The notes: generated by a model not told the origin, from the sequence alone. Positions 26,544 through 64,000 are shown, counted from the stretch's first letter. The stretch: 64,000 bases of DNA from Bacteroidota bacterium (GCA_040387295.1 JAZKEB010000002.1:140802-204801), one strand, 5' to 3'. Numbers and translations: made by a program.

Positions 26544-27425
26544 CTAGTGAATTTGGACCAATTCCCGTTCGGTTCCATTGACGTGATGAATCACCATCAG
26601 GTAATTTCCTTTAGCCAAATCATCCGGTAATTTGATCGTTTGACCGCACACCTGATAATCAGCTTTCCAGACGATGGTTCCATCGGTTTGAACCAATTCC
26701 AGAAAAGTTGGTTGCATATTCGATCGCATGGAAATAGTCACGTTTCCGGTGGTCGGATTTGGATACACACTAAACAAATTCGTTTCCTTTTCGGCAACGG
26801 TCAGTTCACTGCAAATAATGGCGGCTGTTGCCCATGTTGAAGGATTTGGTTTATCAGCAGTTTCAGGATACATGTGCCAGGTTCCGCCTGCGCTCATCAC
26901 ATCAAACGCAATCCCAATTGAATCACCTGAACCAAGCGTATAGCCAATTTTCGAGAACGGAATCGCAATTTCAATCGAATCGGTATATGGAAGTCCTGGT
27001 TGAATATTGTTTACAGCCGTCCAATCGGGCTGAACTTCCTGGCAGTTGTCCCACACGTCCGAACTACCCTGGTTTTCGCAGTCTGAATCAGCAACAAAGA
27101 ACCACCAGTCATCGGGTTGCCAGGTTGTTTCTTTGCTATTGTTTACATCGATGACAATTTCCGGAAAATGAAGAAGCGATTCCAGGTGATCCTGAAACAA
27201 AAAATACAAGTGTGTGGAATCGTGCATGCAGGCAATCCTGGTGATTTGATTCGCCACATTAATTTCCACTTCTGTCGCCATAAACCATTCGTCGGCTGCT
27301 ACTATCCCATCCAGTTGCGGTGGCGGACTACAATTGATCTGGAATACCTGTGCATTTCCCAATAATGAAATGCCACTGAAAAAGACGGAAAGGAAAAACG
27401 CCTGAGTTATTTTTTGTCGGAACAT
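26544..27425 (-). CDS. T9SS-secreted protein with DOMON/CBM9-like domain
   Basis: Signal peptide, LDGIVAADEW and IEIAIPFSKIG; CTD VYPNPTTG...GNYLM. Confidence 0.7.
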   Translation of the reverse strand: MFRQKITQAFFLSVFFSGISLLGNAQVFQINCSPPPQLDGIVAADEWFMATEVEINVANQITRIACMHDSTHLYFLFQDHLESLLHFPEIVIDVNNSKETTWQPDDWWFFVADSDCENQGSSDVWDNCQEVQPDWTAVNNIQPGLPYTDSIEIAIPFSKIGYTLGSGDSIGIAFDVMSAGGTWHMYPETADKPNPSTWATAAIICSELTVAEKETNLFSVYPNPTTGNVTISMRSNMQPTFLELVQTDGTIVWKADYQVCGQTIKLPDDLAKGNYLMVIHHVNGTERELVQIH

Positions 27426-40176: not shown

Positions 40177-40282
40177 TTCGTCATTTAGGGTAACCAGAAT
40201 TGTGTTCTGGTGAAAAAATCCATCCCCTGATAAGGGTACATTTAATGAAATGTTTTACCTTCGTTCTTCATTAACTATACTT

Positions 40283-42579: not shown

Positions 42580-45171
42580 ATGCTACAAACTCTCCAACGG
42601 GCCGGTTTCTTATCGGTCTTCTTTTGCCTCTCCTTTTTTGGTATTTCCCAAACAAATTTATCAATCGTACAGCAGTACATCAGCCAACACGCTGCCGAAC
42701 TCGGCCTTCAAACAGATGGCAATACAACTGTTGAAATCATGTCGGAAGCACCGTCAAAATCGCCCGGTGTTACGCACGTGTATGTAAGACAATTAATCAA
42801 CGGCATTCCGGTAACAAACGGGCTGGCAACTGTTACACTGAAAAACGGGAACGTTGTATCCGTTGCCAACCGGTTAAAGAATATCAACGCTACCAATGTG
42901 GTTGCTCCGTCGTTAACAGCACAGAGCGCACTTGGAAAAGCGTTGGAACAATTAGGTATTACTACCAGCAAACCGATTCAGGTAGTGAAATCATCAGCCA
43001 ACAATGCAGAAGTTGTGTTGTCGAAAGGTGATTTTTCGCTCGAAAATGTACCTGGCAAACTGGTTTATTTAGCCGATGCAGCCGGAAATCTCCAATTGAC
43101 GTGGGACATGAGCATCGCGCTTAAAAACGGTGAACATTGGTGGAGTTTGAGAGTCGATGCGGCTACAGGAACCATTCTGGAGAAAAATGACTGGATCAGC
43201 CATTGCGCCTTCGATGATTGTTCCAATCCTGAACACCAGCACGAAACAACGCTTGCAACGCAACAATCGGTATTGATGCCTCCACCTCCGGGAGTAGACG
43301 AATATTTGGTCTATGCCCTTCCGATTGAAAGTCCGAATCACGGTGACCGATCATTGGTGATCAATCCGTCAGACGCAAATGCCTCGCCTTTTGGCTGGCA
43401 CGATGATAATGGTGTCGCCGGAGATGAATATACCATCACACGTGGTAACAATGTCTATGCATCCGATGATATTGACGATGATGATGTTCCTGGTTATTCA
43501 CCGGATGGGAGCGCATTGACCAGCTTTGATTTCCCGTATGATTCATTGACAGGAGTTCAGGGAAATCTGGATGCCGTGATCACCAACCTGTTCTACATGA
43601 ACAACATGATGCACGACGTTTGGTACCAATACGGTTTCGACGAACCTTCCGGAAATTTCCAATCCATGAATTATACAGGTGACGGATTGGGCGATGATGT
43701 GGTTTATGCCGATGCACAAGACGGAAGCGGTACCAATAATGCCAATTTCGGCACACCGCCTGAAGGTGAAAGTCCGCGTATGCAAATGTACTTGTGGACA
43801 GAAGCCAACGTTCCTGATTTATTGACGATCAACGATCCTTCTGGAATCGCGGGATCATACGTATCATCAACAGCAGGTTTCGGACCTCCGGTTCCGGCAA
43901 TCCCAATTACTGCCGATTTTGTATTGTTGGAAGACGGTACAGGTGATGTAACCGATGGTTGCGACCCGATTGTAAACGGTGCAGCCATGGCCGGCAAAAT
44001 TGTATTGGTTCGTCGTGGTGGTTGTACGTTTGCCAGCAAAGTAGAAGCCATTCAGGATTTCGGTGCATTAGCCGTGATTGTGATGAACAATACCGGCGGA
44101 CAACCTACAGCGATGGGCGGAAATTCAGCTACGGCTGCCATTCCGGCGATTATGGTTTCTCAAACCAACGGAAACCTGTTCCAAACAACGATTACCGGTG
44201 GAACTACTGTAAACGGGACCATTGTAGCTCCGAATGACTTAACGGCAACCGATTCCGATTTCGATAACATGATCATCGCTCACGAGTACGGACATGGTAT
44301 TTCAACCCGTTTGACCGGTGGCGCTGAAAACTCTGATTGTCTAAACAACGCAGATCAAATGGGCGAAGGCTGGTCGGATTGGTTCGGATTGATGCTGACG
44401 ATTGAACCTGGAGATGCAGCTGAAGACCGCAGAGGAGTTGGAACATACGTGAGTAATGAACCAATCACCGGAGACGGTATCCGACCTGCTCCTTACAGTA
44501 CTGATTTTTCCATCAACGGATTCACTTACGCAGCAACCAATAACACGAACGCTATTTCCGAACCACATGGAATCGGATTTGTATGGGCAACCGTGTTGTG
44601 GGACCTGAACTGGGCGTTGATTGACCAATACGGCTTTGATCCGGACGTAAAATACGGAACAGGCGGAAACAATATCGCCATGGCTTTGGTGATCGAAGGA
44701 TTGAAATTACAGCCTTGCGGACCAGGATCTGTGGACGGTAGAGATGCCATTCTACTAGCCGATGAATTGCTGTATGCTGGTGCGAATAAATGTTTGATTT
44801 GGGAAGTGTTTGCCAACAGAGGTTTGGGTTACAGTGCCGATCAGGGCGATGCAGATGATCGTACGGACCAGTCGGAGGCTTTTGATGTACACCCAAGCTG
44901 CTTGTCAAATGCCGGTATTGAGGAAAATACTGCTGATTTTGTATCGGTTTACCCGAATCCGGCGAAAGATGTCTTGTTTGTAGATTTGACCAAACGTGCT
45001 GATATCTCGCAACTACGTATCGTTGATGTTCAGGGGAAAGTATTAACCGAAATGGCTCATCTTTCACCATCTGTTATTAGTATCAACGTAAGCGGATTTA
45101 AGAATGGAATCTATTTCCTTGAATTGACAACTGTAGACGGCACAAAATCGATCCGTGTTGTAAAACATTAA
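42580..45171 (+). CDS. M36 fungalysin-family metallopeptidase (FTP/PepSY propeptide, PA domain, T9SS CTD)
   Basis: RGNNV, AQDGSGTNNANF, VRRGGCTFASK (PA domain), HEYGH...GEGWSD; CTD VYPNPA. Confidence 0.93.
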   Translation: MLQTLQRAGFLSVFFCLSFFGISQTNLSIVQQYISQHAAELGLQTDGNTTVEIMSEAPSKSPGVTHVYVRQLINGIPVTNGLATVTLKNGNVVSVANRLKNINATNVVAPSLTAQSALGKALEQLGITTSKPIQVVKSSANNAEVVLSKGDFSLENVPGKLVYLADAAGNLQLTWDMSIALKNGEHWWSLRVDAATGTILEKNDWISHCAFDDCSNPEHQHETTLATQQSVLMPPPPGVDEYLVYALPIESPNHGDRSLVINPSDANASPFGWHDDNGVAGDEYTITRGNNVYASDDIDDDDVPGYSPDGSALTSFDFPYDSLTGVQGNLDAVITNLFYMNNMMHDVWYQYGFDEPSGNFQSMNYTGDGLGDDVVYADAQDGSGTNNANFGTPPEGESPRMQMYLWTEANVPDLLTINDPSGIAGSYVSSTAGFGPPVPAIPITADFVLLEDGTGDVTDGCDPIVNGAAMAGKIVLVRRGGCTFASKVEAIQDFGALAVIVMNNTGGQPTAMGGNSATAAIPAIMVSQTNGNLFQTTITGGTTVNGTIVAPNDLTATDSDFDNMIIAHEYGHGISTRLTGGAENSDCLNNADQMGEGWSDWFGLMLTIEPGDAAEDRRGVGTYVSNEPITGDGIRPAPYSTDFSINGFTYAATNNTNAISEPHGIGFVWATVLWDLNWALIDQYGFDPDVKYGTGGNNIAMALVIEGLKLQPCGPGSVDGRDAILLADELLYAGANKCLIWEVFANRGLGYSADQGDADDRTDQSEAFDVHPSCLSNAGIEENTADFVSVYPNPAKDVLFVDLTKRADISQLRIVDVQGKVLTEMAHLSPSVISINVSGFKNGIYFLELTTVDGTKSIRVVKH

Positions 45172-51746: not shown

Positions 51747-53090
51747 ATGAAAAAAACGTGCCTCGGAATTGCTTTGGTTCTCTCCACCATTAGCAATGCG
51801 CAAAGTCCTGCCATTACATCATGGCTCATTAATACAACAAATGCTACCGGAAGCCATTACGTTATGGGCAATGGTACTCCCATTTCCGACGCCACGCTGG
51901 CCAATGTGCAAACCGTTCAGTATTCGGCAAGTTGGGTGTACGTTTCCACAAAAGGAATTCCGACCTACCCGACCGGGCCGTTTTTAGATGGCAATCCGTC
52001 ATTAGCGACTTCTCAAAATGCGATCTTCAAATTTCCGCTTTCTCCGGTGGAAAACACAGGAACTCCAACCAATACAACTGGCGGGAATATCGGTGTTTTT
52101 ATCAATGGTGTTGCCCTGTTTGATTACCGCGATGGCGTTTCCTGGAAAAATTCGACCAGTGCTTTGGCCGGCGGACCATTAGGCGGAATGGGTGACGGTG
52201 TTTGGAACCGTGACGCCGTAGTTGCTGAAATGGAAGGTTTCGATTGTTCGAAAGGCCACCCGGCAATGGGAAATTACCATCATCACCAAAATCCGAGTGC
52301 CTACAATCTTGATTTGACGGTGATTTCAGACATTTGCGATATCTACGCAGCCGACGGTTTATACGCCATTAACGCATCTGTTCATTCTCCGCTGATCGGT
52401 TTTGCCTACGACGGTTTCCCTATTTACGGTGCTTACGGCTACAAAAACACCGACGGAACAGGTGGAATTGTGCGCATCAATTCGGGTTACCAATTGCGAA
52501 ATATTAGCACAAGAACAGTTTATGCCGATGGAACCGACGTAACTGACGGTCCGGCTGTGAATGCAACTTATCCGCTCGGTTTGTTCCGTGAAGATTACGA
52601 ATTTGTTGCAAACGTGGAACCGGAATACCTGGATGAACACAACGGTCGTTTCTGCGTTACTCCCGAATATCCTGCCGGGACGTATTGTTATTTCGCGACT
52701 GTAGACGAAAATTGGAACTCGGCTTATCCGTATGCTGTTGGTCCTACATTTTACGGGATGAAAACGGCCGCTAAAGTCCCTTCGATTACAGAAACGGTTA
52801 CCACATACGATCCTTCTGCAGCTAGTGTGGATGAAAACGTGAGTGTTTCGTTTAATGTGTTCCCGAATCCTTCGGCTGATGTGGTGATTGTGCAGGCATT
52901 CGGTGCTCACAGTAGTGATATTGCCGTTGAATTGTGGGACATGAACGGAAAATTAATTCAAACACAATCCATTCTTCAGGGAAGTACCATTTGTTATTTC
53001 CCGGTTGCTGATCTGCAAAGCGGAACGTATATCATTCACGTGCAGGGAAATGTAGCAGCAAAAGACTATTCGATTGTAATTGCTGAATAA
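51747..53090 (+). CDS. YHYH-domain protein with T9SS CTD
   Basis: IGVFINGV, GNYHHH, HSPLIGFAYDGFPIYG and LDEHNGRF...YCYFAT; CTD VFPNPS. Confidence 0.85.
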   Translation: MKKTCLGIALVLSTISNAQSPAITSWLINTTNATGSHYVMGNGTPISDATLANVQTVQYSASWVYVSTKGIPTYPTGPFLDGNPSLATSQNAIFKFPLSPVENTGTPTNTTGGNIGVFINGVALFDYRDGVSWKNSTSALAGGPLGGMGDGVWNRDAVVAEMEGFDCSKGHPAMGNYHHHQNPSAYNLDLTVISDICDIYAADGLYAINASVHSPLIGFAYDGFPIYGAYGYKNTDGTGGIVRINSGYQLRNISTRTVYADGTDVTDGPAVNATYPLGLFREDYEFVANVEPEYLDEHNGRFCVTPEYPAGTYCYFATVDENWNSAYPYAVGPTFYGMKTAAKVPSITETVTTYDPSAASVDENVSVSFNVFPNPSADVVIVQAFGAHSSDIAVELWDMNGKLIQTQSILQGSTICYFPVADLQSGTYIIHVQGNVAAKDYSIVIAE

Positions 53091-53468: not shown

Positions 53469-55079
53469 GTGAAAAAGGTCATCATCATTATCCTTAGTTA
53501 TTCGCTTGTTTTTGTTGTGGGTTATCTCACTGTGGGAATCATCCTTCATTTTGCGAAACCAGAGGTGAAAATGTTGCCTGCATTTATTGAGGATGCCTTG
53601 CCGGAAGTTGAAAGCGAAACTCAACTATCTCTGCAACAACAGTCCCTTGAGGGCATGGATTACCGCTTGCTGACTCCAACCGATTTTGACACCACCGTTC
53701 CCATTTACTTCAACGAAGATTACAACGACGCAAACGGTATTTTTTGTTTTAGGGGAAATGCGCAGCGCAATCATCCTACACGCGGTGTAATCAGCGAAAA
53801 ACCTTCAAAAGTAGAACTTGACTGGGTTTTTGAAACCGCCTATGATTCCCGCATGACCGATTTCGGCGTTTGGGGTGGTGGCAGTGGCTGGACAGGCCAA
53901 CCGTTGGTGATTCGCTGGCCCGAAGAGCAACGCAGGCAATTATTTGAACTTGATCCCGAATTTTTAGCAAAGGAACAGTTCAAGGAAGTGATCGTAGGAT
54001 CGCTTTCGGGCAATATTTATTTCCTTGATTTTGAAACCGGAAAGGCTACACGGCCACACCTGAGTATCGGCAATCCGATCAAAGGAACTGTTTCCGTTGA
54101 TCCCCGCATGAACGGACTCATGACCGTTGGTCAAGGCATTCCAAACGGTGATCGGTTTGGAGCTTATTTGTTCGATATGTTCGCAGGCAAAGAAGTCGAT
54201 TACCGTGCGGGAATGGATCAGACTTCTCGCCGATTGTGGGGAGCACACGATAGCAATCCATTGTTTGATGCCGAAACCGGATCGCTGTTCTGGCCTGCAG
54301 AAAACGGACAGATTTACAAAACGATTCTTTCGTCCGACAAGACCTTTGGTGCAGTCCAGAAATTCAATTATGGCGTGCAGCAACGCCCCGATCTCGGATT
54401 GGAAGCAAGCATGGGTGCCTATAAAAATCTTGGTTTCTTTGGCGACAACGGCGGAAATGTATTTTGCCTCAACCTTACAACGATGCGACCCGTTTGGTTG
54501 TTCGACAATATCGACGATACCGATGCCAGTATGGTCATTGAAACGGAAGGAAAAACGCCGTTCCTGTATCTGGGCAATGAGGTCGACAAACAAGGACCGA
54601 CCGGAACAGCCTATATCCGCAAGCTGAATGCGCTTACAGGAAAAGAACAATGGCATTTCAGCCGACCTTGCAGTGGCTCAAACGTAGGCGGAAAAGCCAA
54701 TAGCGGTGGCGTTTTGGCGACTGTACTTCCAGGAAAGGAAAAAGCAAAAGACTTGGTTTTCGGCATTTTCTCGCGCACAAACGACAGCATGAAAGGCGAA
54801 TTTGTAGCCATCGACAAACAAACCGGCAAAGAGCGCTATTCCATTCCGATGGATGCCTACTCATGGGCTTCTCCCATCGATATCTACGATAAAAAAGGCA
54901 ATTGTTACATTTTCTTCACCGATGTATATGGTACTATTTACCTCATCGACGGTGTAACGGGAACCATTATCCACAAGGAAAAAACGGGTTACGTGTTTGA
55001 ATCGTCGCCTGTAGCCTGGGGCAACCGCATTGTGGTGGGAACCCGTGGAAAAACAATCCTGAGTTTTTTGGTCTCGTAG
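53469..55079 (+). CDS. Membrane-anchored PQQ-like beta-propeller protein
   Basis: N-terminal TM, FRGNAQR, GWTGQP, repeated LD/IDxxTGK Trp-docking motifs, ESSPVAW. Confidence 0.75.
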   Translation: MKKVIIIILSYSLVFVVGYLTVGIILHFAKPEVKMLPAFIEDALPEVESETQLSLQQQSLEGMDYRLLTPTDFDTTVPIYFNEDYNDANGIFCFRGNAQRNHPTRGVISEKPSKVELDWVFETAYDSRMTDFGVWGGGSGWTGQPLVIRWPEEQRRQLFELDPEFLAKEQFKEVIVGSLSGNIYFLDFETGKATRPHLSIGNPIKGTVSVDPRMNGLMTVGQGIPNGDRFGAYLFDMFAGKEVDYRAGMDQTSRRLWGAHDSNPLFDAETGSLFWPAENGQIYKTILSSDKTFGAVQKFNYGVQQRPDLGLEASMGAYKNLGFFGDNGGNVFCLNLTTMRPVWLFDNIDDTDASMVIETEGKTPFLYLGNEVDKQGPTGTAYIRKLNALTGKEQWHFSRPCSGSNVGGKANSGGVLATVLPGKEKAKDLVFGIFSRTNDSMKGEFVAIDKQTGKERYSIPMDAYSWASPIDIYDKKGNCYIFFTDVYGTIYLIDGVTGTIIHKEKTGYVFESSPVAWGNRIVVGTRGKTILSFLVS

Positions 55080-55099
55080 GCGCGGGACGCATCCCGCGC
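55076..55099 (+). repeat. GTAG-type REP (family 1)
   Basis: GTAG-GCGCGGGA-CGCA-TCCCGCGC; its TAG is the stop of the upstream gene. Confidence 0.8.
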
Positions 55100-55213
55100 A
55101 ATGCTACACACGCAATGACACCAAAAAGGCGCAATTAATCGCGCCCAAAACACCCAAAAAATCGCGCCATCCGTGCCAAATAATCACACCACATCCGTAT
55201 CATACAAAAGGGT

Positions 55214-55249
55214 AAAAAGCAAGCGGCCCCGGGGTTAGGAGGGCCGCTC
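55214..55249 (-). terminator. Intrinsic terminator on the minus strand
   Basis: AGCGGCCC-TCCTAACCCC-GGGGCCGCT followed by TGCTTTTT. Confidence 0.6.
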
Positions 55250-55419
55250 TGTGTGAATAGTGATCTGTATCTTTAATTCATTCAGATCGTTTAAAAACAG
55301 CAGACTGCCTTAAGCGAACAGTGGTGAAAATCGTGGGTTACCCGTCGAAGACATAGGGTTGAATGTCTTAAAAAAGCAGCCTGCCGTTTTATTTCGTTTT
55401 TAGTGGTTAGTTTCCCACC

Positions 55420-55641
55420 TTATCTTTCGTTCCAAATAAGATGAAAAAATTTCCTTAGTCTATCCTGGTTCATTTGCCAGAAGTTTTCTACAGCTCCTGA
55501 CGAATTACCGACTTTCATAATACAATAAGTCAACTGATTCTTGTCACAGTTTAATTGCTCACACCAATAATCAACATCTTGCATGCTATGCAGGTCTATT
55601 TTACCCGGAGCAGAAGTTAGTATGTTCATCGTCGTAATCAT
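55420..55641 (-). CDS. DUF3606 domain small protein
   Basis: IDLHSMQDVDYWCEQLNCDKNQLTYCIMKVGNS matches the DUF3606 pattern (YW...L...V..VG); TACATTTG on the minus strand at 55671-55678. Confidence 0.7.
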   Translation of the reverse strand: MITTMNILTSAPGKIDLHSMQDVDYWCEQLNCDKNQLTYCIMKVGNSSGAVENFWQMNQDRLRKFFHLIWNER

Positions 55642-55701
55642 CACTCTAGTAATTCAGTTGTTTACTAAGACAAATGTAGGTGACCAATATTTACTAAACA
55701 A

Positions 55702-55760
55702 CCGTATAAATACGGTATTTTTAATGCGGGAAACCGCAATGATTTTTGCGGGAAACCACA
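55702..55760. promoter_or_regulatory. Three phased 14-bp palindromes (candidate response-regulator sites)
   Basis: CCGTA-TAAA-TACGG (55702), TGCGG-GAAA-CCGCA (55725) and TGCGG-GAAA-CCACA (55747); spacings of 23 and 22 bp. Confidence 0.55.
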
Positions 55761-55907
55761 TTTTTAAAAACACCCAACCCCATTAATAAGCTGATAAATA
55801 GTGGCTTGTGTGTTTTTTAACAAAGGAATCGTTGCGTTTACTGAAAACTCAGGGATTGCGGTATTTGAAAATAGCTAATATTGATATGAACTAAAAAATC
55901 TATTGTT

Positions 55908-56219
55908 ATGGCGTTTAACGGAACAGAAGGAGGGGCTATTACCCTCGAAGCAGCAGCAGCAATGACAGCGTGCTATAGAAAATTGCACCCGAATCAAACA
56001 GAAGCGCATTTTTTGGGAAAAGACAACTTTTTGGCCTTATTGAACCAAACGGGCTGTGTTGGAATCAGAGTTTATTATGGTGATAAACCGAATGGAGCAA
56101 AAGAACTTATCTTTGTAGGTGTAGACGCTAACGAAAACGATATGTTGGATTTGATTATGGATTTAACAACGCCATGCCCGACTTGTTGCTCAACAGGCAA
56201 TGCTTTAAATGGTAGATGA
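55908..56219 (+). CDS. Small cytoplasmic protein with a GIRVYYG motif and a PCPxCC tail
   Basis: 103 aa, no signal peptide; GIRVYYG, LIFVGVD and TTPCPTCC; ATGA-coupled to the next gene. Confidence 0.8.
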   Translation: MAFNGTEGGAITLEAAAAMTACYRKLHPNQTEAHFLGKDNFLALLNQTGCVGIRVYYGDKPNGAKELIFVGVDANENDMLDLIMDLTTPCPTCCSTGNALNGR

Positions 56220-56878
56220 TCACTCTAAACGAAATATCAACTTATTCCATCCTGCTTCCGAGTGGGATGGTTTTTTTTCGTTGGAAAAAAAAGGATATTT
56301 CGATTACAATCATTCGCATTCTAATTTTATTCACTTTGCTACTGGATGCGTTTAGTCAATATTACATTTCTGATTTTTATAAAAGTGACGGTCAAAAAAA
56401 CAACATGTTCTTATTCCATATCTTCACTTTATGCGAGGCCGTGTTATTAATTCTTTATTTCAGGAGTTTCTTTCAACAGAAGTGGTTTAGAAATGCTTTG
56501 TTATTATTGCTCCTCGGTTTTTCAATTCTCACAATCTTAAATGTATGTTTTTGGGAACCAATCGACTTTTACCCATCGATCACTCGAATGACAGAATGCA
56601 TCATCATGATGATCTTAAGCATTCTATTTTTTGTAAACCTATTCCAGCAATCGGCCGTTCTGAAGTTAGTCCAGTATAATCATTTCTGGCTGGTTTCAGG
56701 CTTACTGTTGTTTTTCGCGGGGACTTTCTTCATGAATATCGTGGGACAGTTGGTACTTCAAAAAAACAACCTTGGCTTTAACATTTACGACATTCACTCT
56801 TTCCTGAACATATTTCTGAATATTATTTATACCATTGCACTATGGATGAGCAGCAGACGCTTGATCTCGGCACCGTAA
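56216..56878 (+). CDS. Stand-alone ~7-TM membrane protein (putative split sensor)
   Basis: About seven hydrophobic segments, NNMFLFHIF..CE and FWLVSGLLLFFAGTFF; overlaps the kinase gene by 37 nt. Confidence 0.75.
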   Translation: MITLNEISTYSILLPSGMVFFRWKKKDISITIIRILILFTLLLDAFSQYYISDFYKSDGQKNNMFLFHIFTLCEAVLLILYFRSFFQQKWFRNALLLLLLGFSILTILNVCFWEPIDFYPSITRMTECIIMMILSILFFVNLFQQSAVLKLVQYNHFWLVSGLLLFFAGTFFMNIVGQLVLQKNNLGFNIYDIHSFLNIFLNIIYTIALWMSSRRLISAP

Positions 56879-57624
56879 TTATCCTGGGCACTATGGGTAT
56901 GATTATTCTCGCATTGGGAGTAGTCGTCTTCTCGTTTATCTACCAACGCCGGATGACCGCCAAGCAAAATGAACTAACGATGCTTGATTTGCAGCACCAA
57001 AAAGAACTAATGGGCGCCGTGATCCAAACCAAAGAATTGGAACAACGCCGCATTGCACTCGAACTACACGATGATGTCGGTTCAACGCTCACCGCCATTA
57101 AATTTTCGGTTTCAAGCTTTACCATTGACGAGAAAGACAAAGAATTGCTCAACCTCAATCTTGCCGATGCCATCCAAAAGGTGCGCCGCATTTCCAACGA
57201 TTTATTGCCTTCCATCCTGGAAGAACTCGGTTTGATTACCGCCGTAAAAAGCCTCATCAAAACGCTCAACGACAACAAGACCATCAATTACGTTTTTGAG
57301 TCATTCGGTGAACAAATTCGTCATCCGAAAGATGTGGAACTTGCCTGTTACCGGGTATTGCAGGAATTACTCAACAACAATTTGAAATATGCCCATGCCA
57401 CTGAAGTGCGCGTTGAAATTGTGTTGAGTCAATCAGGGTTGCTGATTATCGTTACCGATGACGGCGATGGTTTTGTGCCCGAAGATCATACCGATCATGA
57501 ACGACCTTCCCTCGGATTAAAAAATATAGAAAGCCGCATACAACAGATCAAAGGAGACATTACCTACGAAAGACGCTCACCTAAAGGAACAAAAGTATTG
57601 ATTGATTGGAAACGCCATGAATGA
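56842..57624 (+). CDS. HisKA_3 (NarX/DegS-type) sensor histidine kinase with one TM
   Basis: RRIALELHDDVG H-box, QELLNNNLKYA N-box, DDGDGF and LGLKNIESR. Confidence 0.92.
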   Translation: MDEQQTLDLGTVIILGTMGMIILALGVVVFSFIYQRRMTAKQNELTMLDLQHQKELMGAVIQTKELEQRRIALELHDDVGSTLTAIKFSVSSFTIDEKDKELLNLNLADAIQKVRRISNDLLPSILEELGLITAVKSLIKTLNDNKTINYVFESFGEQIRHPKDVELACYRVLQELLNNNLKYAHATEVRVEIVLSQSGLLIIVTDDGDGFVPEDHTDHERPSLGLKNIESRIQQIKGDITYERRSPKGTKVLIDWKRHE

Positions 57625-58273
57625 GATTACAGTAGCCATTGCAGATGACCAGTCCATTTTCAGACAAGGATTGGTAAACCTCGTGGGAGGTTTTAAAAAT
57701 ATACGCGTGTTGTTTTCCGCCGAAAACGGTCGCGAAATGCTGGAAAAAATCCCGGATAACAAACCCGATTTGGTATTGCTCGACTTCCGAATGCCCGAAC
57801 TCAACGGATTAGAAACCGCCAAGTTGATCCGCGATCAGTTTGCCGGCGTACGCGTATTGATCCTTTCTATGTACGACGATCAGGAATTCGTGGAAACAGC
57901 CATGGAAAACGGAGCACACGGTTATTTGTCAAAAGACGATGAGCCCGAGGAAATTGAACGCGCTATTCTCAGCACAATAGAAACAGGTTATTACCTCAAC
58001 GACCGCACGTCGAAAATGCTCATCGGTAAACTCATCAACCAGGGCACGATGAAACCTGAGTTTAAAACACCACCGGTTGAATTCACTCCCATGGAAATGC
58101 AAATCCTGCAACTGATCTGTGCTGAATTCACCACCCAGGAAATTGCCGATAAACTCTGCAAAAGCAAGCGCACCATTGAAAGTTGCCGCACGCTGATGAT
58201 GCAGAAAATCAACGCCCGCAATGTGGTTGGTTTGGTGATGTATGCGGTGAAGAATAATTTGGTTGGGAATTAA
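57617..58273 (+). CDS. NarL/FixJ (LuxR-HTH) response regulator
   Basis: IADDQ, LLDFRMP, GYLSK and TTQEIADKLCKSKRTIE HTH. Confidence 0.93.
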   Translation: MNEITVAIADDQSIFRQGLVNLVGGFKNIRVLFSAENGREMLEKIPDNKPDLVLLDFRMPELNGLETAKLIRDQFAGVRVLILSMYDDQEFVETAMENGAHGYLSKDDEPEEIERAILSTIETGYYLNDRTSKMLIGKLINQGTMKPEFKTPPVEFTPMEMQILQLICAEFTTQEIADKLCKSKRTIESCRTLMMQKINARNVVGLVMYAVKNNLVGN

Positions 58274-58380
58274 GGAATCGGAAAAACCTTTTCCAACCGT
58301 TAAGAAAAGTTTGTATCAGGTGAATGACATCTTTGAACAGATGCCACCGAAATTACTTTTATACTTAACAAATACCTCCT

Positions 58381-59040
58381 ATGAAAAACAGCTTATTGAT
58401 TGTTACATTGGCACTTGCCGGATCATGTTTTACGCAAACAAACCAAAACCGCGTTGGAATTACGATCGGAGGTGGTTCGCAAAAATACAGTGGTGATCTT
58501 GGAAACGGGTTCACACTGAAAAATGAGGTTTGGCGCGGCGGCGTTGCTTTAAATATCAATGTCTACCTCAACCCATCCTTTGACATCAGCGGCTATGGAT
58601 CCATCGGTGATTTCGGTTACTGTCAGCCAGATGATAAGAAAAACATGGTAGTCGCCGAAGGAGACAGGTGCGATGCCTGCCTGGACCGGCTTGGATTGGG
58701 AAATCTAAGTTCGCGGATGTACGTCAGCGGTGTGCAGCTTCGCTACAAATTCAACAACGGTTATCTTCTCCGCGAAGAACTACGCATCAAACCCTATGTT
58801 TATATGGGAGTTGCCGTGAATAAACTCACTGATCGCATGAAAATGAACTGTGTGGATGCAGGAAATTACCTCACCATCAATTCAGGTATCGGTGTTCGCT
58901 ATTATGTAAATGAGCGGCTAAATATCGGCTATAATCTGAATGTCGGTTATTTCACCTCTGATAAACTGGACTTTCTTTCCCGCGGGGCCAGTGACATGTA
59001 CCTGCAGAATACGGTATTTTTAGGAGTGGATTTGTTTTAG
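58381..59040 (+). CDS. Outer-membrane beta-barrel protein
   Basis: Signal peptide, GGSQKYSGDLG, GIGVRYY and terminal LGVDLF. Confidence 0.75.
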   Translation: MKNSLLIVTLALAGSCFTQTNQNRVGITIGGGSQKYSGDLGNGFTLKNEVWRGGVALNINVYLNPSFDISGYGSIGDFGYCQPDDKKNMVVAEGDRCDACLDRLGLGNLSSRMYVSGVQLRYKFNNGYLLREELRIKPYVYMGVAVNKLTDRMKMNCVDAGNYLTINSGIGVRYYVNERLNIGYNLNVGYFTSDKLDFLSRGASDMYLQNTVFLGVDLF

Positions 59041-59053
59041 GGGAAACAGGATC

Positions 59054-59743
59054 ATGAAGAATGTACCACGTATCACCACGCTGTTTTTAGCAACATTGTT
59101 GTTGTTTCTGGTAAGTAGTTCGTGTAACGATAAAAACAAAAAAACGTATTGTGAGGAAAACCCAAGCGGATGCCAATCTGTGCTCGCTTCTAAAGAATTT
59201 TTTGTATTTAAAGTTGGCTCCTGGTGGGTGTATGAAGAGGAAACCACTCATGAACGCGATTCAATGTATGTAACTGAATCATATAATAATAGCAATGGTT
59301 ATGATTTTTTGGTAAAAATTAAAAGCTCATTAACGGATTACGAATACCACTATTGGCCGATTTATGCTGGCGGTAATGATAATTGTAGTGAATCAAGTCC
59401 TGTTAGAGGAAAGTGTATTTATATCAAACGGTCAAAAGGAAAACCCGGGGAATTTGTTGGTGAGGACTACTGCTTTTTTGTGAATTTCAAAGTCAATGAT
59501 GGAATATTTATTTCCAATGTTAATTTCCCTAACAACACCTTAATGGTACAAGACATTTTATCCGATTATACTTTAGGTAGCTTGAGTTTCACACAATCAG
59601 TTAAAATGTTTGAAGATCATACATTCATTGAATCAAACAATCCCACTAACCATTATTTTGCAAGGAATGTCGGTCTTGTGAGGAAAGAGCTTCTAGACAG
59701 TAATCAGGTTTGGAACCTGGTTGATTATTACATAGCCCCTTGA
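59054..59743 (+). CDS. Lipoprotein paralogue 1 of the tandem array
   Basis: Lipobox VSSS-C; FKxGSWWVYEEETTHERDSMYV; RKELLDSNQVWNLVDYYIAP. Confidence 0.85.
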   Translation: MKNVPRITTLFLATLLLFLVSSSCNDKNKKTYCEENPSGCQSVLASKEFFVFKVGSWWVYEEETTHERDSMYVTESYNNSNGYDFLVKIKSSLTDYEYHYWPIYAGGNDNCSESSPVRGKCIYIKRSKGKPGEFVGEDYCFFVNFKVNDGIFISNVNFPNNTLMVQDILSDYTLGSLSFTQSVKMFEDHTFIESNNPTNHYFARNVGLVRKELLDSNQVWNLVDYYIAP

Positions 59744-59955
59744 TTTAATATAAACATCTGGTTGAAGCCAAAAACGGTAGAAAATAACTGAATAAACTTT
59801 AGAACAACATAAATAGATTACGTCCTGCTAACTTAATTTTGTACCATGATTTCCAACCAAAGCAAACAACCGGTATCAGTGAAGAGAGACGAAGTATCAT
59901 CTAAATTCACGGTTAGTTGCCCTAAAAACACTAACTTTAATTCAAATTCACGATC
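59744..59955 (+). repeat. Inter-cassette repeat 1, containing a -7 promoter
   Basis: 212 bp, nearly identical to 60646-60857 and 61542-61745; TAATTTTG at 59834-59841. Confidence 0.9.
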
Positions 59956-59959
59956 ATGA
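59846..59959 (+). CDS. Putative leaderless 37-aa uORF
   Basis: MISNQSKQPVSVKRDEVSSKFTVSCPKNTNFNSNSRS; its stop overlaps the lipoprotein ATG (ATGA). Confidence 0.3.
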   Translation: MISNQSKQPVSVKRDEVSSKFTVSCPKNTNFNSNSRS

Positions 59960-60645
59960 AGCATACAGCACATATCACCACGCTGTTTTTAGCAACACTA
60001 TTGTTGTTTCTCGCGAGTAGTTCATGTAAGGATAAAAACAAAAAAACCTTTTGCGAACAAAATCCCGGGAGCTGTCAATCTGTGCTTGTAGCAAAAGAGT
60101 TTTTCCTTTTCAAAGAAGGCTCATGGTGGGTGTATGAAGAAGAAACGACTCATGAGCGCGATTCGATGTATGTATCCGAGTCAATGAATGATTCTAACAG
60201 TTATGATTTCGACGTAAAAATATACAGCCAACTTCAGGATTTTAATTATCATTATTCACCATTATACATTAATAGCACTGCCTGTAGTAGTACTTCACCG
60301 GTAAGTCAAAAGTGTATTTACATTAAACGCTCAAAGTCTAAACCCGGAGAATATATCGGAGAAGATCATTGCTTTTTTGTGAACTACACTAAAGGTAGTT
60401 TTGAGACTGTCACAGGGAATATTTTCTTCCCCAATAATAAAATATCAGTAGAAGATATTTATGATTCTTATCAGCTGGGTAATTTGAATTTTGGAAAGAC
60501 CGTAAAAATTCATGAATTGAGTACCTTGATTGAAGGTATCCAACCCACGAACCATTATTTTGCAAGGAATGTCGGTCTTGTGAGGAAAGAGCTTCTAGAC
60601 AGTAATCAGGTTTGGAACCTGGTTGATTATTACATAGCCCCTTGA
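59956..60645 (+). CDS. Lipoprotein paralogue 2
   Basis: Lipobox ASSS-C; same conserved blocks as paralogue 1. Confidence 0.85.
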   Translation: MKHTAHITTLFLATLLLFLASSSCKDKNKKTFCEQNPGSCQSVLVAKEFFLFKEGSWWVYEEETTHERDSMYVSESMNDSNSYDFDVKIYSQLQDFNYHYSPLYINSTACSSTSPVSQKCIYIKRSKSKPGEYIGEDHCFFVNYTKGSFETVTGNIFFPNNKISVEDIYDSYQLGNLNFGKTVKIHELSTLIEGIQPTNHYFARNVGLVRKELLDSNQVWNLVDYYIAP

Positions 60646-60857
60646 TTTAATATAAACATCTGGTTGAAGCCAAAAACGGTAGAAAATAATCGAAACAAAA
60701 TCAGAACAACATAAATAGATTACGTTCTGCAACCATAATTTTGTACTATGATTTCCAACCAAAGCAAACAACCGGCATCAGTGAAGAGAGAAGAAGTATC
60801 ATCTAAATCAACGGTTGGTTGCCCTAAAAGCACTAACTTTAATTCAAATTCACGGTC
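60646..60857 (+). repeat. Inter-cassette repeat 2
   Basis: 212 bp; TAATTTTG at 60736-60743. Confidence 0.9.
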
Positions 60858-60861
60858 ATGA
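60748..60861 (+). CDS. Putative leaderless 37-aa uORF
   Basis: MISNQSKQPASVKREEVSSKSTVGCPKSTNFNSNSRS; ATGA overlap. Confidence 0.3.
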   Translation: MISNQSKQPASVKREEVSSKSTVGCPKSTNFNSNSRS

Positions 60862-61541
60862 AGTACATTCCACGTATGACCAACCTCTTTGTTCTGACAC
60901 TCGTAGTGCTCCTGATCAGTGTTTCCTGTAAAGACAAAGCCCCTAAGCCTGGAGGGCCATGCACTACTTGTCAATCGGTATCAGCAGCCAAAGATTTTTT
61001 CTATTTCAAAATGGGGTCTTGGTGGGTATATGAAGAAGAAACAAGTCATGAACGCGATTCGATGTATGTGATAGAAGCAAATGACGATGTAAATGGTTAT
61101 GATTTTGATATAAGAATTAAATCAGCATTAACTGACTATGAGTATCATTATTGGCCGATTTACTTTAGCGGGATTAGTGGTTGTAGTGAAGTTACACCGA
61201 TATCTAAAAAATGTCTTTTTGTGAAAGAATCCAAAGGTAACCCTGGAGATTTCATTGGTGAAAGTAATTGTTTTTTTATTCGTCACAGGAAAGGCGAATT
61301 TGTTAGCGCTTTCAATGTGAATTTCCCGGATAATAAGGTTTATATTGATGATATACTAGATACTTTCCAATTGAATAGTTTTTCATTTCCTAGTACTATT
61401 AAAACACATGAGTTAGCAAAAATCCAGGATAATAATCAACCAACAAACTACTATTATGCTAAAGGAGTTGGTATAGTTCGTAAAGAATTCTTAGACAGTA
61501 ATCAGGTTTGGAATCTGGTTGATTATTACATAGTCCCTTAA
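60858..61541 (+). CDS. Lipoprotein paralogue 3
   Basis: Lipobox ISVS-C; CTTCQSV; same conserved blocks. Confidence 0.85.
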   Translation: MKYIPRMTNLFVLTLVVLLISVSCKDKAPKPGGPCTTCQSVSAAKDFFYFKMGSWWVYEEETSHERDSMYVIEANDDVNGYDFDIRIKSALTDYEYHYWPIYFSGISGCSEVTPISKKCLFVKESKGNPGDFIGESNCFFIRHRKGEFVSAFNVNFPDNKVYIDDILDTFQLNSFSFPSTIKTHELAKIQDNNQPTNYYYAKGVGIVRKEFLDSNQVWNLVDYYIVP

Positions 61542-61745
61542 TTTCGAAATTGAACTCAAAAAAACAGTAGAAAATAATCGAATAACCTTTAGAACAACAT
61601 AAATAGATTACGTTCTGCAACCTTAATTTTGTACTATGATTTCCAACCAAAGCAAACAACCGGCATCAGTGAAGAGAGAAGAACTGTCATCTAAATCAAC
61701 GGTTAGTTGCCCTAAAAGCACTAACTTTAATTCAAATTCAGGATC
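61542..61745 (+). repeat. Inter-cassette repeat 3
   Basis: 204 bp; TAATTTTG at 61624-61631. Confidence 0.9.
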
Positions 61746-61749
61746 ATGA
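61636..61749 (+). CDS. Putative leaderless 37-aa uORF
   Basis: MISNQSKQPASVKREELSSKSTVSCPKSTNFNSNSGS; ATGA overlap. Confidence 0.3.
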   Translation: MISNQSKQPASVKREELSSKSTVSCPKSTNFNSNSGS

Positions 61750-62435
61750 AGAACATTCCACATATTCCCAACCTCTTTGTTCTGGCATTTATGGTGCTCC
61801 TGATCAGTGTTTCCTGTAAAGACAAAGATCCTAAGCCAGGAGGTCCATGCACTACTTGTCAATCAGTAACAGAAGCCAAGGATTATTTCTACTTCAAGAT
61901 GGGATCGTTTTGGGTATACGAGGAAGAAACCACGCATGAACGCGATTCAATGTATGTGACCGCATCGGCCAATGACATTGATAGTTATAATTTCGATGTC
62001 AGTATCAAATCTGCGCTAACAGACTACGAATACCATTATTGGCCCGTTTACAATCAGGTGAGTAATAGCTGTAGCCCGACGGCCCCTGTCGCCAAACGTT
62101 GTCTCTATGTCATGCGTGGCAAGGGTAAGTTTCAGGACAATCTGGGCGAAAGCAGTGTATTCTTCATCCGCTACCGAATCGGTGAGCAGATGAATACAGG
62201 CAGCGACATGACCTATTGCCCCAATAATAAAATCACTTTAGGCGCGATCCTCGACAGCCTTGTACTGCCGGATTACACCTTCCAAAAAACGATACGCATT
62301 GATGAGGATTGCTCTTTTCAAGAAGGAAAGCAACCTACCCGGTTTTATTATACCCAAGGTGTAGGCATTGTACGTAAGGAGTTAATCGACAGCAACCAGG
62401 TCTGGAACTTGGTCGATTATTACATAGCTCCTTAA
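61746..62435 (+). CDS. Lipoprotein paralogue 4
   Basis: Lipobox ISVS-C; more GC-rich; close to paralogue 5. Confidence 0.85.
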   Translation: MKNIPHIPNLFVLAFMVLLISVSCKDKDPKPGGPCTTCQSVTEAKDYFYFKMGSFWVYEEETTHERDSMYVTASANDIDSYNFDVSIKSALTDYEYHYWPVYNQVSNSCSPTAPVAKRCLYVMRGKGKFQDNLGESSVFFIRYRIGEQMNTGSDMTYCPNNKITLGAILDSLVLPDYTFQKTIRIDEDCSFQEGKQPTRFYYTQGVGIVRKELIDSNQVWNLVDYYIAP

Positions 62436-62445
62436 ATTCAGGAAC

Positions 62446-63135
62446 ATGAAGAACATTCCACATCTAACTAACCTCTGTATTCTGGCACTTATAGTGCTTT
62501 TGATCAGTGTTTCCTGTAAAGACAAAGACCCTAAACCAGGCGGCGAATGCACCACCTGCCAGTCGGTCATGGAAGCCAAGGATTATTTCTGCTTCAAGAT
62601 GGGATCGTTTTGGGTTTACGAGGAAGAAACCACGCATGAACGTGATTCAATGTATGTGATCCTGTCCAACAACGATCCTGATTCTTACGGTTTTGAATGC
62701 CAAATAAAAAGTTCATTGACGGAGTACGAATACCGCTACTGGCCCGTTTACAACCAGATGGTCAGCGGCTGTAACCTGACGTTGCCCGTCGGCAAACGCT
62801 GCCTGTACGTCTTGCGTGGCAAGGGCAAGTTTCAGGACAACCTGGGTGAAAGTGAGGTGTTCTTCGTGCGCTACAAGGTTGGCGACTCTGATTATACCGG
62901 TGGTGATATGTTCTACTGCCCCAACAACAAAATAACTTTTGGCGCTATTCTGGACAGCCTTGTCTTACCCAATTATACCTTCCAAAAGACGATACGCATA
63001 GACGAGGATTGCTGTTTTCAGGAAGGGAAACAACCTACCAAATTCTATTATACCGAAGGTATCGGCATCGTGCGCAAGGAACTTATAGACAGCAATCAAG
63101 TCTGGAACCTCGTCAATTACAACATCGTACCCTGA
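62446..63135 (+). CDS. Lipoprotein paralogue 5
   Basis: Only 10 bp after paralogue 4; shares QDNLGES and YCPNNKIT.GAILDSLVLP with it. Confidence 0.85.
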   Translation: MKNIPHLTNLCILALIVLLISVSCKDKDPKPGGECTTCQSVMEAKDYFCFKMGSFWVYEEETTHERDSMYVILSNNDPDSYGFECQIKSSLTEYEYRYWPVYNQMVSGCNLTLPVGKRCLYVLRGKGKFQDNLGESEVFFVRYKVGDSDYTGGDMFYCPNNKITFGAILDSLVLPNYTFQKTIRIDEDCCFQEGKQPTKFYYTEGIGIVRKELIDSNQVWNLVNYNIVP

Positions 63136-63217
63136 TATACCACACTCCTCACCCTGACAAGATCGGCAGCGGACGAACGCGTCCTGTAATCATGTAATCT
63201 TTAAATTCTAAATAACC

Positions 63218-64000
63218 ATGAAACACTTGTTTCTTTCGGTAAGCATCGTGCTTGCCGCCGGGTGGTCTTTTGCCCAAACCGACCCCCTCAACCTTCAAAA
63301 ATACTGGAAGCTCCGGGACAATTTCCGGGAACAGTTCGTGAAGATCGGGCCGGGCGACGGCGAGAGCATCACGGCCCGCGCGCTGAAACCGTTGGAGTGC
63401 GTCGACAACTATACTGCCGACGGCACCTCCGAAAACCACACCCCGCACGGCAACGGATCGCACGGCGAAATGCACTTCGGCGACGCGATGATCCGGCACG
63501 GGTATTATCTCGGCCTGCTGGCGACCGAATACCGTTTGCTGAAAGACGCTGGGCAGGACGTGACCGGGGTCAAAAACGAGCTTTTCTATGCGCTCAACGC
63601 CATTAACCGACTGGACTTCATCGCGGAAGAGAAACAAGGGCTTACCTATTTCACGGATTTCGACCCGTCGTTGAACGGATTCTATATGCGTGAGGACATT
63701 CCCGAGGATTTCGCCGAGGATAACTGGGGCAGCAGCAAGTTCGAGTCGCGTTGCGTGAACTCGCCGCATTACAAAACCAACAATGCAGCCCATTCCAACG
63801 AAGGCGGCCCGCATGATTTTCAGGCACACGGCAATAGCTACCAAAATTCCCCGAGCAGTGATCAGTTTTCATCCCTGATGCTCGGCTTCAGCCTCATTCA
63901 TAAACTAGTAGACCCCACAGAGTTCGTTCAACCACCGGGCAGCGAGTTCGGATTCTATCTTGTCGGCGAAACGCAAAATATAGTCCACCGCATGATGACC
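63218..64000 (+). CDS. Secreted protein of unknown function; 3' end runs off the window
   Basis: Absent from the ORF track because it has no stop in the window. Manual translation gives MKHLFLSVSIVLAAGWSFA-QTDPLNLQKYWKLR...FGDAMIRHGYYLGLLATEYRLL...NELFYALNAINRLD...NGFYMREDIP...SSDQF, open to 64000. Confidence 0.8.
   Translation, partial: MKHLFLSVSIVLAAGWSFAQTDPLNLQKYWKLRDNFREQFVKIGPGDGESITARALKPLECVDNYTADGTSENHTPHGNGSHGEMHFGDAMIRHGYYLGLLATEYRLLKDAGQDVTGVKNELFYALNAINRLDFIAEEKQGLTYFTDFDPSLNGFYMREDIPEDFAEDNWGSSKFESRCVNSPHYKTNNAAHSNEGGPHDFQAHGNSYQNSPSSDQFSSLMLGFSLIHKLVDPTEFVQPPGSEFGFYLVGETQNIVHRMMT

Follow-up and report, generated by a model that had tools for sequence, protein, structure and literature searches.

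Closest described systems

[quoted passage not shown] Here we analyzed a locus of similar outline at the 3' end of a stretch of 64,000 nucleotides (nt) from a Bacteroidota bacterium (GCA_040387295.1, JAZKEB010000002.1:140802-204801), referred to as the window throughout. Five tandem genes for predicted lipoproteins, named c1-c5 and assigned to a family that we call LIPO, precede the 5' part of a gene for a large protein, BIG, a predicted cargo of the system for type IX secretion (T9SS). What is new here is the combination: a secreted protein is partnered by an array of cognate lipoproteins, and neither of the two families has been described. Loci used for comparison are numbered with the prefix L.

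The Tle-Tli systems (Tle1 with Tli1a/Tli1b in P. aeruginosa, Tle3 with Tli3 in E. coli) likewise combine the gene of a large exported protein with diverged paralogues of a periplasmic lipoprotein, whose copy number varies between strains. In the LIPO-BIG loci, too, the partner is a predicted periplasmic lipoprotein, and one to six paralogues adjoin BIG, directly upstream. However, Tle proteins are exported by VgrG/PAAR and the T6SS, whereas BIG carries a type IX C-terminal sorting domain. Tle proteins possess a lipase motif, while BIG has neither such a motif nor a recognised catalytic family, and the Tli families are unrelated to the predicted DUF3108-like barrel of LIPO.

The TANFOR polymorphic toxins of Bacteroidetes are genetically associated with the T9SS as well; a link to it is speculation so far, and a role in bacterial competition was proposed for them (Jana, Salomon & Bosis 2020, PMC7073777). 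They differ in having swappable C-terminal toxin domains and immunity genes located downstream. BIG gave no TANFOR match in the NCBIfam scan, its architecture is conserved over the full length up to a C-terminal T9SS sorting domain, and its partners are lipoproteins encoded upstream.

In contact-dependent inhibition (CDI) and Rhs loci, orphan toxin-tip/immunity cassettes accumulate by recombination at conserved sequence. LIPO arrays resemble them in that remnants of the large gene occur inside arrays (L011, L023, L031) and that copies find their match among the partners of large proteins in other lineages. In contrast to CDI/Rhs loci, the remnants are 5' ends and not toxin tips, the partner genes precede BIG, and BIG lacks a hypervariable C-terminal module.

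Two further likenesses concern the fold of LIPO. BF2203 (3fzx, 'YmcC-like fold') and BDI_3050 (4fvs, a lipoprotein), the best structural matches, are exported proteins or lipoproteins of Bacteroidales of similar size; they share only 10-13% sequence identity with LIPO and have no known function, hence no mechanism follows from the likeness. LolA2 and LolB2 of the F. johnsoniae flexirubin locus (bioRxiv 10.1101/2024.09.13.612696) are barrels of the LolA superfamily, one of them a lipoprotein, encoded in the locus that they serve. Unlike LIPO, they are single copies and serve the synthesis of a pigment lipid, not a secreted protein, and the match between LIPO and LolA is weak (E 0.17).

The lipoprotein array

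Open reading frame (ORF) calling places five tandem LIPO genes of 227-229 amino acids (aa) on the + strand at 59054-63135. The array and the adjoining BIG gene comprise the following features, given with GC content and, where listed, GC at third codon positions (GC3):

59054..59743, + strand: LIPO c1, 229 aa; GC 35.7%
59744..59955, + strand: spacer 1, repeated putative promoter and leader of ~110 nt; TAATTTTG box at 59834-59841
59956..60645, + strand: LIPO c2, 229 aa; GC 36.7%
60646..60857, + strand: spacer 2, repeated putative promoter and leader; TAATTTTG box at 60736-60743
60858..61541, + strand: LIPO c3, 227 aa; GC 35.4%, GC3 29%; copy used for the structure model
61542..61745, + strand: spacer 3, repeated putative promoter and leader; TAATTTTG box at 61624-61631
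61746..62435, + strand: LIPO c4, 229 aa; GC 44.5%; chimeric
62446..63135, + strand: LIPO c5, 229 aa; GC 46.1%, GC3 59%; BIG-proximal copy
63218..64000, + strand: 5' part of BIG, 261 codons, the gene continuing past the window end; GC 54.7%, GC3 71%

The copies can be aligned over their full length, with 48-68% identity to c1, and all contain WVYEEET(T/S)HERDSMYV and RKE(L/F)(L/I)DSNQVWNLV; a LIPO profile hidden Markov model recovers them with E-values of 1e-100 to 1e-106. An earlier note, made from the sequence of the window, had described five tandem lipoproteins of this length with these motifs and paired cysteines, and had assigned a repeated promoter spacer to each of copies 2-4. The former is confirmed by the ORFs, the alignment and conservation among 65 family members, the latter by the spacers themselves. 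These precede c2, c3 and c4, measure 204-212 nt, are 87-93% identical to one another, and each contains TAATTTTG exactly 122 nt upstream of the ATG. We take this element to be a match to the Bacteroidota -7 promoter box TAnnTTTG. The genes c1 and c5 start 13 and 10 nt after the previous gene, the latter figure being the c4-c5 gap, and 82 nt separate c5 from BIG.

Conserved spacers recur in other arrays. In L032 they are 97-99% identical, compared with 65-74% for the genes, and in L034 the corresponding values are 100% and 69%. The window spacer is 72% identical to the region 5' of the single LIPO gene of L005, with the box at equal distance. An Rfam scan of 55000-64000 (E<=1) gave no match, and thermodynamic z-scores of -0.25 to +1.4 revealed no structured RNA in the repeated leader. 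A scan for sigma-70 promoters and terminators found fewer sites than in shuffled sequences, these models being uninformative for Bacteroidota. Inverted repeats in the array are only 14-27 nt long and 70-93% complementary, and none flanks a spacer.

Unitigs of the source run match the array at 100% and even depth (14-26x). They end at the repeated spacers, and the order c2-c3-c4 therefore rests on the original assembly.

Two similar antisense ORFs of 84 and 79 aa, 60720-60974 and 61623-61862 (both - strand), span spacer 2 with the 5' end of c3 and spacer 3 with the 5' end of c4. They occur twice only because the spacer does, and probably neither is a gene.

Linkage of LIPO and BIG across genomes

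The first three LIPO contexts revealed the same arrangement in all three cases, i.e., two to three LIPO genes directly before a protein of ~1450 aa with a Por_Secre_tail domain. Among 40 LIPO-seeded genome loci, one to six LIPO genes are immediately followed by BIG in about 17. The carriers include Crocinitomix catalasitica ATCC 23190 (L033) and both loci of a complete Fluviicola genome; CP121319 is a case of two BIG loci in one genome (L016 and L020). About ten of the 40 loci have no BIG within 5-10 kb, and several of these LIPO genes lie amid housekeeping genes. The reciprocal, BIG-seeded scan of metagenomes with the BIG N-terminal domain (N-domain) as query found one to four LIPO genes directly upstream in 17 of 19 BIG-type loci. 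Wherever a locus has both genes, LIPO is upstream of BIG, and the two are co-oriented across Crocinitomicaceae/Fluviicola-like genomes. The earlier note had proposed looking for homologues next to genes like that at 63218 in other genomes, and this is where they are found, directly upstream. Judged by gene order, which recurs in dozens of related bacteria, LIPO and BIG appear to form a conserved two-gene module of specific partners in Crocinitomicaceae/Fluviicola-like genomes.

The two partners also covary. Across 394 locus pairs, the identity of the best LIPO pair tracks that of the BIG pair (r = 0.86), with a difference of -4.4 +/- 6.4 points.

Distant LIPO homologues are located directly upstream of short cargos, made up of hardly more than the N-domain, in L046, L080, L092, L096, and L124, which ties LIPO to the N-domain and not to the beta-helix or the tail of BIG. 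In addition, a second family of small lipoproteins (~150-190 aa) occurs directly upstream of short N-domain cargos, with 11 genes in 10 loci:

L044:4534-5004 and L044:7067-7528
L069, L075, L079, L088, L089, L098, L101, L120, L127

Its members share the mature start CKKYPEGP within the motif C-K-K-Y-P/E-E-G-P…ISL(R/Y)(S/T)K…RVVG.W. In L044 such genes stand on both sides of the cargo. Profile comparison of this family with LIPO reached only 69% probability. The pairing of a small lipoprotein with an N-domain cargo may thus be a general rule that involves more than one lipoprotein family.

BIG, a large predicted type IX cargo

The ORF at 63218 starts with a signal peptide (…SFAQ/TDP), followed by the start of a conserved all-alpha N-domain, and at 56% identity its product matches the beginning of a protein of 1452 aa (L001:10741-15096). 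Full-length orthologues comprise 1416-1513 aa, and all of them end in a T9SS type A sorting domain (Por_Secre_tail/TIGR04183). The signal peptide of the window BIG lies within the window and its C-terminus beyond base 64000, so that its sorting domain is known from the orthologues. By this comparison, the gene part at 63218 is probably the 5' end of a gene for a T9SS cargo of ~1450 aa.

BIG is alignable end to end, the profile matching positions 1-1444 in every orthologue. Over the first 300 aa, mean identity amounts to 45-53%; for the remainder it is 24-39%, without a break point.

The N-domain constitutes a new, widespread and undescribed large family. Its profile matches 2034 representative clusters at 50% identity, 1084 of them at E<=1e-30, and no Pfam match fell inside the N-domain in any of 67 members. 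The proteins are mostly 430-880 aa long, with the N-domain first and the T9SS sorting domain last. The N-domain always directly follows the signal peptide of T9SS cargos, some of which carry PKD, FG-GAP, hexapeptide or beta-helix inserts; it also forms stand-alone proteins of 430-450 aa.

A model of the first 763 aa of the BIG orthologue P0148 was obtained with high confidence (predicted local distance difference test, pLDDT, 90; predicted template modelling score, pTM, 0.93). It comprises an all-alpha domain of ~580 residues and then a beta-helix. A Foldseek search with this model against the PDB yielded nothing significant (best E 0.025). An (alpha/alpha)6-barrel as in sugar enzymes and a beta-helix adhesin fold were considered for the N-terminal part; the matches were weak and scattered, too little to name a fold. 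The invariant acidic and basic residues E100, E117, R127, D129, and D156 (P0148 numbering) suggest an enzyme.

Six more ORFs of the window weakly match the tail of the BIG profile, i.e., the T9SS sorting domain: 26544-27425 (- strand), 28540-30903, 31190-33349 (- strand), 40250-42427, 42580-45171, and 51747-53090. Pfam confirms the last one as YHYH plus Por_Secre_tail. The organism is rich in T9SS cargos.

The LIPO family

A search of protein collections returned 148 LIPO relatives from Fluviicola, Crocinitomicaceae and other Flavobacteriales assemblies, all unnamed or 'hypothetical'. LIPO matched no family in Pfam, NCBIfam, PADLOC or PHROGs, and the sequence search against the PDB gave no match either. 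The sole recurrent weak match is DUF3108_like, which 5 of 65 members show (best score 12.2 bits, cut-off 27; best E 0.063); LIPO thus stays below the Pfam gathering threshold for DUF3108 and DUF3108_like (PF11306 and PF21347). At the sequence level, this is a new family.

An AlphaFold2 model of c3, computed from a 65-sequence alignment (pLDDT 91), consists of a short N-terminal helix and an 11-strand barrel. Foldseek ranked 3fzx and 4fvs first (E 9e-4 to 1.4e-3, probability 1.00), albeit with TM-scores of only 0.36-0.40 and root-mean-square deviations of 8-13 A. LprG, VioE, RseB, and LolA followed, the matches to true lipid carriers being weak (E 0.09-0.2, TM-score ~0.25). The model suggests a DUF3108/YmcC-like, LolA-related beta-barrel. 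The DUF3108 literature gives no function.

The signal peptide ends at the lipobox cysteine C24, which is invariant in 65 of 65 members. The remaining cysteines form a linker pair, C35/C38, and a pair in a barrel loop, C109/C119; they are invariant or at least 90% conserved in the same set, and such pairs fit an oxidising compartment. The minimal surface-exposure signal of Bacteroidota lipoproteins is K-(D/E)2 or Q-A-(D/E)2 together with a net negative charge, according to Lauber et al. (PMC5080379), and KD alone is a weak export signal (PMC5080379). In LIPO, the lipidated cysteine is followed by KDKNK, KDKDP or KDKKP. Only 7 of 65 members have the K-(D/E)2 motif, the surface-export signal being absent in the other 58, and the net charge is at least 0 in 64 of 65. 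Given the missing signal and this charge, LIPO is predicted to face the periplasm.

Conserved ends and a divergent middle, which the earlier note had seen in the five copies, recur throughout the family. Strands b1, b10 and b11 are near-invariant, with commonest-residue frequencies of 0.96, 0.82 and 0.88, i.e., 0.82-0.96 compared with 0.41-0.51 in the variable loop 103-119 and residues 141-188. This layout is thus a property of the entire LIPO family. As the first and last strands should adjoin in the barrel, one conserved and one variable face are expected.

History of the array

Base composition differs along the array. GC amounts to 32-37% in c1-c3 and their spacers (GC3 29-36%, genes only), to 44-46% in c4-c5 (GC3 50-59%), and to 54.7% in the BIG 5' part (GC3 71%), the window mean being 43.9%. 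The nearest relatives of BIG, in L049 and L050, sit in contexts of higher GC. The gene c4 is a chimera, whose first ~120 nt are c3-like (85-92%) and whose remainder is c5-like. c1 and c2 share their final ~100 nt without a difference; at the 5' ends of c3 and c4 the proportion of synonymous differences (pS) is 0.09. Gene conversion reinforces the layout of conserved ends and variable core locally.

L055 is syntenic with the window, its response-regulator and outer-membrane protein (OMP) genes being 85% identical in DNA. There, the OMP gene is followed by a LIPO remnant, c1' (89% aa identity), c2' (90%), and then BIG, the first 260 aa of which are only 52% identical to the window BIG. In L005, a lone LIPO of the c1 type (87%) precedes a BIG with 86% identity to the one in L055. 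Copy c1 is thus an orthologue (87-89% aa) of the LIPO preceding the BIG-A type in L005 and L055; c2 shares 90% identity with the LIPO next to BIG in L055. The largest outliers between LIPO and BIG identity are c2-L055 (90% versus 52%, +38 points) and c1-L005 (87% versus 55%, +33 points).

Taken by composition and identity, the array is a recombination mosaic of low-GC c1-c3 and a higher-GC unit c4-c5-BIG without internal promoters. A resident sub-array c1-c3, each copy with its own promoter and leader, would have been joined by recombination to an incoming c5-BIG module, and c5 would then have been duplicated to give c4. This is in good agreement with the earlier note, which had pointed to recombination between conserved flanks and proposed a check on copy-number variation at strain level; recombination and copy-number change are both borne out by the chimeric c4, the conversion tracts and the comparison with L055.

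Synonymous sites between the paralogues are saturated (pS 0.6-0.9), which means that the copies are old; where measurable, the ratio of nonsynonymous to synonymous rates (dN/dS) is 0.11-0.21. A recent lineage-specific burst was considered and rejected on account of this saturation and the closer relatives that c1, c2 and c5 have in other assemblies than inside the array. Orthologous pairs within a type reveal a dN/dS of 0.06-0.09 in every segment, the variable core included, and each LIPO type is under strong purifying selection. Positive selection on the cores, the subject of a site-wise check suggested by the earlier note, is absent within types, where the cores are under purifying selection; the comparison between types is blocked by saturation of synonymous sites.

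Several loci document decay. L014 (9275-12657) has four abutting intact LIPO genes before an ORF that matches only the last ~210 BIG positions, and in L032 (5716-16033) six LIPO genes precede a BIG split into two ORFs. Remnants of the BIG 5' end are found between LIPO genes at L011:11683-11820, L023:9706-9828, and L031:10700-10972, while L055:1120-1532 is an internally deleted LIPO. For the remnants, and for c1 and c2 with their match to partners of another BIG type, module replacement by descent fits equally well as orphan accumulation.

Function of LIPO

We tentatively favour, at somewhat below even chance, the reading that LIPO proteins are type-specific periplasmic binding partners of the N-domain of BIG cargos, similar to immunity proteins or inhibitors. 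T9SS cargos fold in the periplasm before export, and a harmful enzyme would consequently need a guard there. LIPO would bind the folded N-terminal domain of BIG-type cargos in the periplasm, in a type-specific manner, and would most likely keep a potentially harmful enzyme inactive. Whole LIPO-BIG modules would be exchanged via recombination in the spacers and in the conserved ends of the genes; LIPO types from before an exchange would stay behind and might still protect against the BIG types of neighbours. Such a partner is suggested by the linkage, the predicted periplasmic site, the conserved and type-specific faces and the covariation with cargo type. The variable copy number, the arrays persisting without an intact BIG, the solitary copies and the BIG 5' remnants point in the same direction.

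A further step, which we consider doubtful, would make the BIG-type proteins an unrecognised class of type IX-secreted antibacterial, bacteriocin-like effectors. Their all-alpha N-domain would attack an envelope target, and the LIPO arrays would provide type-specific periplasmic immunity against the variants of neighbours. If this were true, the T9SS would take part directly in warfare between bacteria, with related cargos in more than 2000 clusters. If LIPO is an inhibitor or immunity protein, it would belong to the first effector-immunity system tied directly to the T9SS, a role so far only speculated upon (PMC7073777). LIPO and the BIG N-domain are both undescribed and yet modelled with high confidence, and their strong reciprocal linkage offers a concrete, testable handle on many 'hypothetical' type IX cargos. 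Irrespective of whether LIPO is an inhibitor or a helper in export or anchoring, the exchange of modules between close relatives reveals a locus under unusual evolutionary pressure.

A number of observations weigh against LIPO as an immunity- or inhibitor-like partner. Two of the 19 BIG-type loci (L049, L067) hold a full-length BIG flanked by housekeeping genes and without adjacent LIPO, and no LIPO was detectable next to the 755-775-aa relatives (L057, L059) or next to most of the short N-domain cargos. The correlation of LIPO and BIG identity may mostly reflect shared phylogeny. Apart from the sorting domain, BIG gave no Pfam, NCBIfam, PADLOC, PHROGs or PDB sequence match, its beta-helix matches in the PDB being at chance level, and family, PDB and fold searches recognised no toxic or catalytic family in it. 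Nor does it have a polymorphic-toxin architecture: its N-terminus is the most conserved part, and there is no swapped toxin tip. To our knowledge, the T9SS does not deliver proteins into the periplasm of other cells, and a neighbour's BIG would need such a route to its target. Barrels of LolA-like fold mostly have lipids, not proteins, as ligands. For c1 and c2, purifying selection is an average since the split from L055; it is no proof of use without BIG-A and may predate the swap. The public runs holding the array sequence are DNA only, from one watershed metagenome, with no transcript runs among them, and the lipidation and location of LIPO are predictions.

These points also bear on the locus type proposed in the earlier note, namely orphan immunity paralogues at a polymorphic toxin locus. 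The orphan part would fit c1 and c2, orthologues of partners of a different BIG type, as would module replacement by descent. The polymorphic-toxin assignment itself is not supported: no toxin family is recognisable in BIG, which can be aligned over its whole length and terminates in a T9SS sorting domain, and the LIPO genes lie upstream instead of downstream.

The alternative that survives best, though we regard it as unlikely, is a type-specific helper in export or anchoring, where every LIPO would act as escort, folding aid or tether for its own BIG type, either in the course of type IX secretion or afterwards, much as particular cargos have dedicated accessory proteins. Extra copies would remain from modules since replaced, or would serve BIG genes at other sites of the genome; indeed, some genomes hold at least two BIG loci, e.g., CP121319 (L016, L020). 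The tight, co-oriented gene pair (gaps 10-82 nt) and the tracking of BIG type by LIPO type would be explained, and the barrel could dock on a common machine by its invariant seam and bind the cargo by its variable face. That BIG is tolerated without an adjacent LIPO suits a helper better than an antidote. However, up to six diverged intact copies per cargo are hard to justify for a helper, as are the intact arrays of loci in which only a BIG tail (L014) or a split BIG (L032) is left, solitary LIPO genes amid housekeeping genes, and the conserved promoters that c1-c3 retain. If LIPO were such a helper, it would represent a new class of cargo-specific T9SS accessory protein.

A lower probability still is assigned to LIPO proteins as carriers of hydrophobic ligands. 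According to this explanation, they bind lipids or lipid-linked glycans in the manner of LolA or LprG and trade substrates or products with a BIG enzyme, the variable barrel interior setting the ligand range. The fold neighbours LprG, LolA, RseB, and VioE all bind hydrophobic ligands, BIG weakly resembles (alpha/alpha)6-barrel glycosidases and a beta-helix, and stand-alone LIPO genes occur; moreover, Bacteroidota use extra LolA/LolB paralogues for the flexirubin lipid pathway (bioRxiv 10.1101/2024.09.13.612696). On the other hand, the closest structures, 3fzx and 4fvs, have no known ligand and matches to true lipid carriers are weak (E 0.09-0.2, TM-score ~0.25). A periplasmic carrier and an extracellular enzyme would also occupy different compartments, and no transporter gene is conserved beside the module in the loci compared.

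A diversified surface repertoire, as in antigenic variation, with LIPO copies as alternative receptors or decoys against phage or predators that are expressed singly or varied by recombination, was the other proposal of the earlier note and is now very improbable: tandem copies that are conserved at their ends, vary in the middle and bear gene-conversion tracts would suit it, as would a BIG allele swapped between close relatives like a surface antigen, but 58 of 65 members lack a surface-export signal, the five ORFs are complete with start codons, three of them with the promoter-like box, and include no silent cassette, the inverted repeats are too short and imperfect to be convincing and no invertible element was found, each type is under strong purifying selection, the paralogues are old with saturated synonymous sites, and the anti-phage defence and phage protein libraries (PADLOC, PHROGs) gave no match.

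Genes upstream of the array

The gene preceding c1 is:

58381..59040, + strand: OMP beta-barrel gene, 219 aa; Pfam OMP_b-brl, 4.8e-08; ends 13 nt 5' of c1

It is likely co-transcribed with c1. This gene and the two-component system upstream of it were considered as parts of the module and rejected, since they are kept only in L055 among more than 120 loci; L055 is likewise the only one of these loci with a homologue of the window OMP gene.

The two-component system is composed of a multi-pass membrane ORF (56216-56878), a HisKA_3/HATPase kinase ORF (56842-57624) that overlaps the former by 37 nt and has no large sensor domain, and a LuxR-type response regulator next to it (57602-58273). The first two may represent a split or frameshifted sensor kinase. 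This trio adjoins the array only in the window and in L055. Further upstream, a DUF3606 gene (74 aa) is located at 55420-55644 on the - strand.

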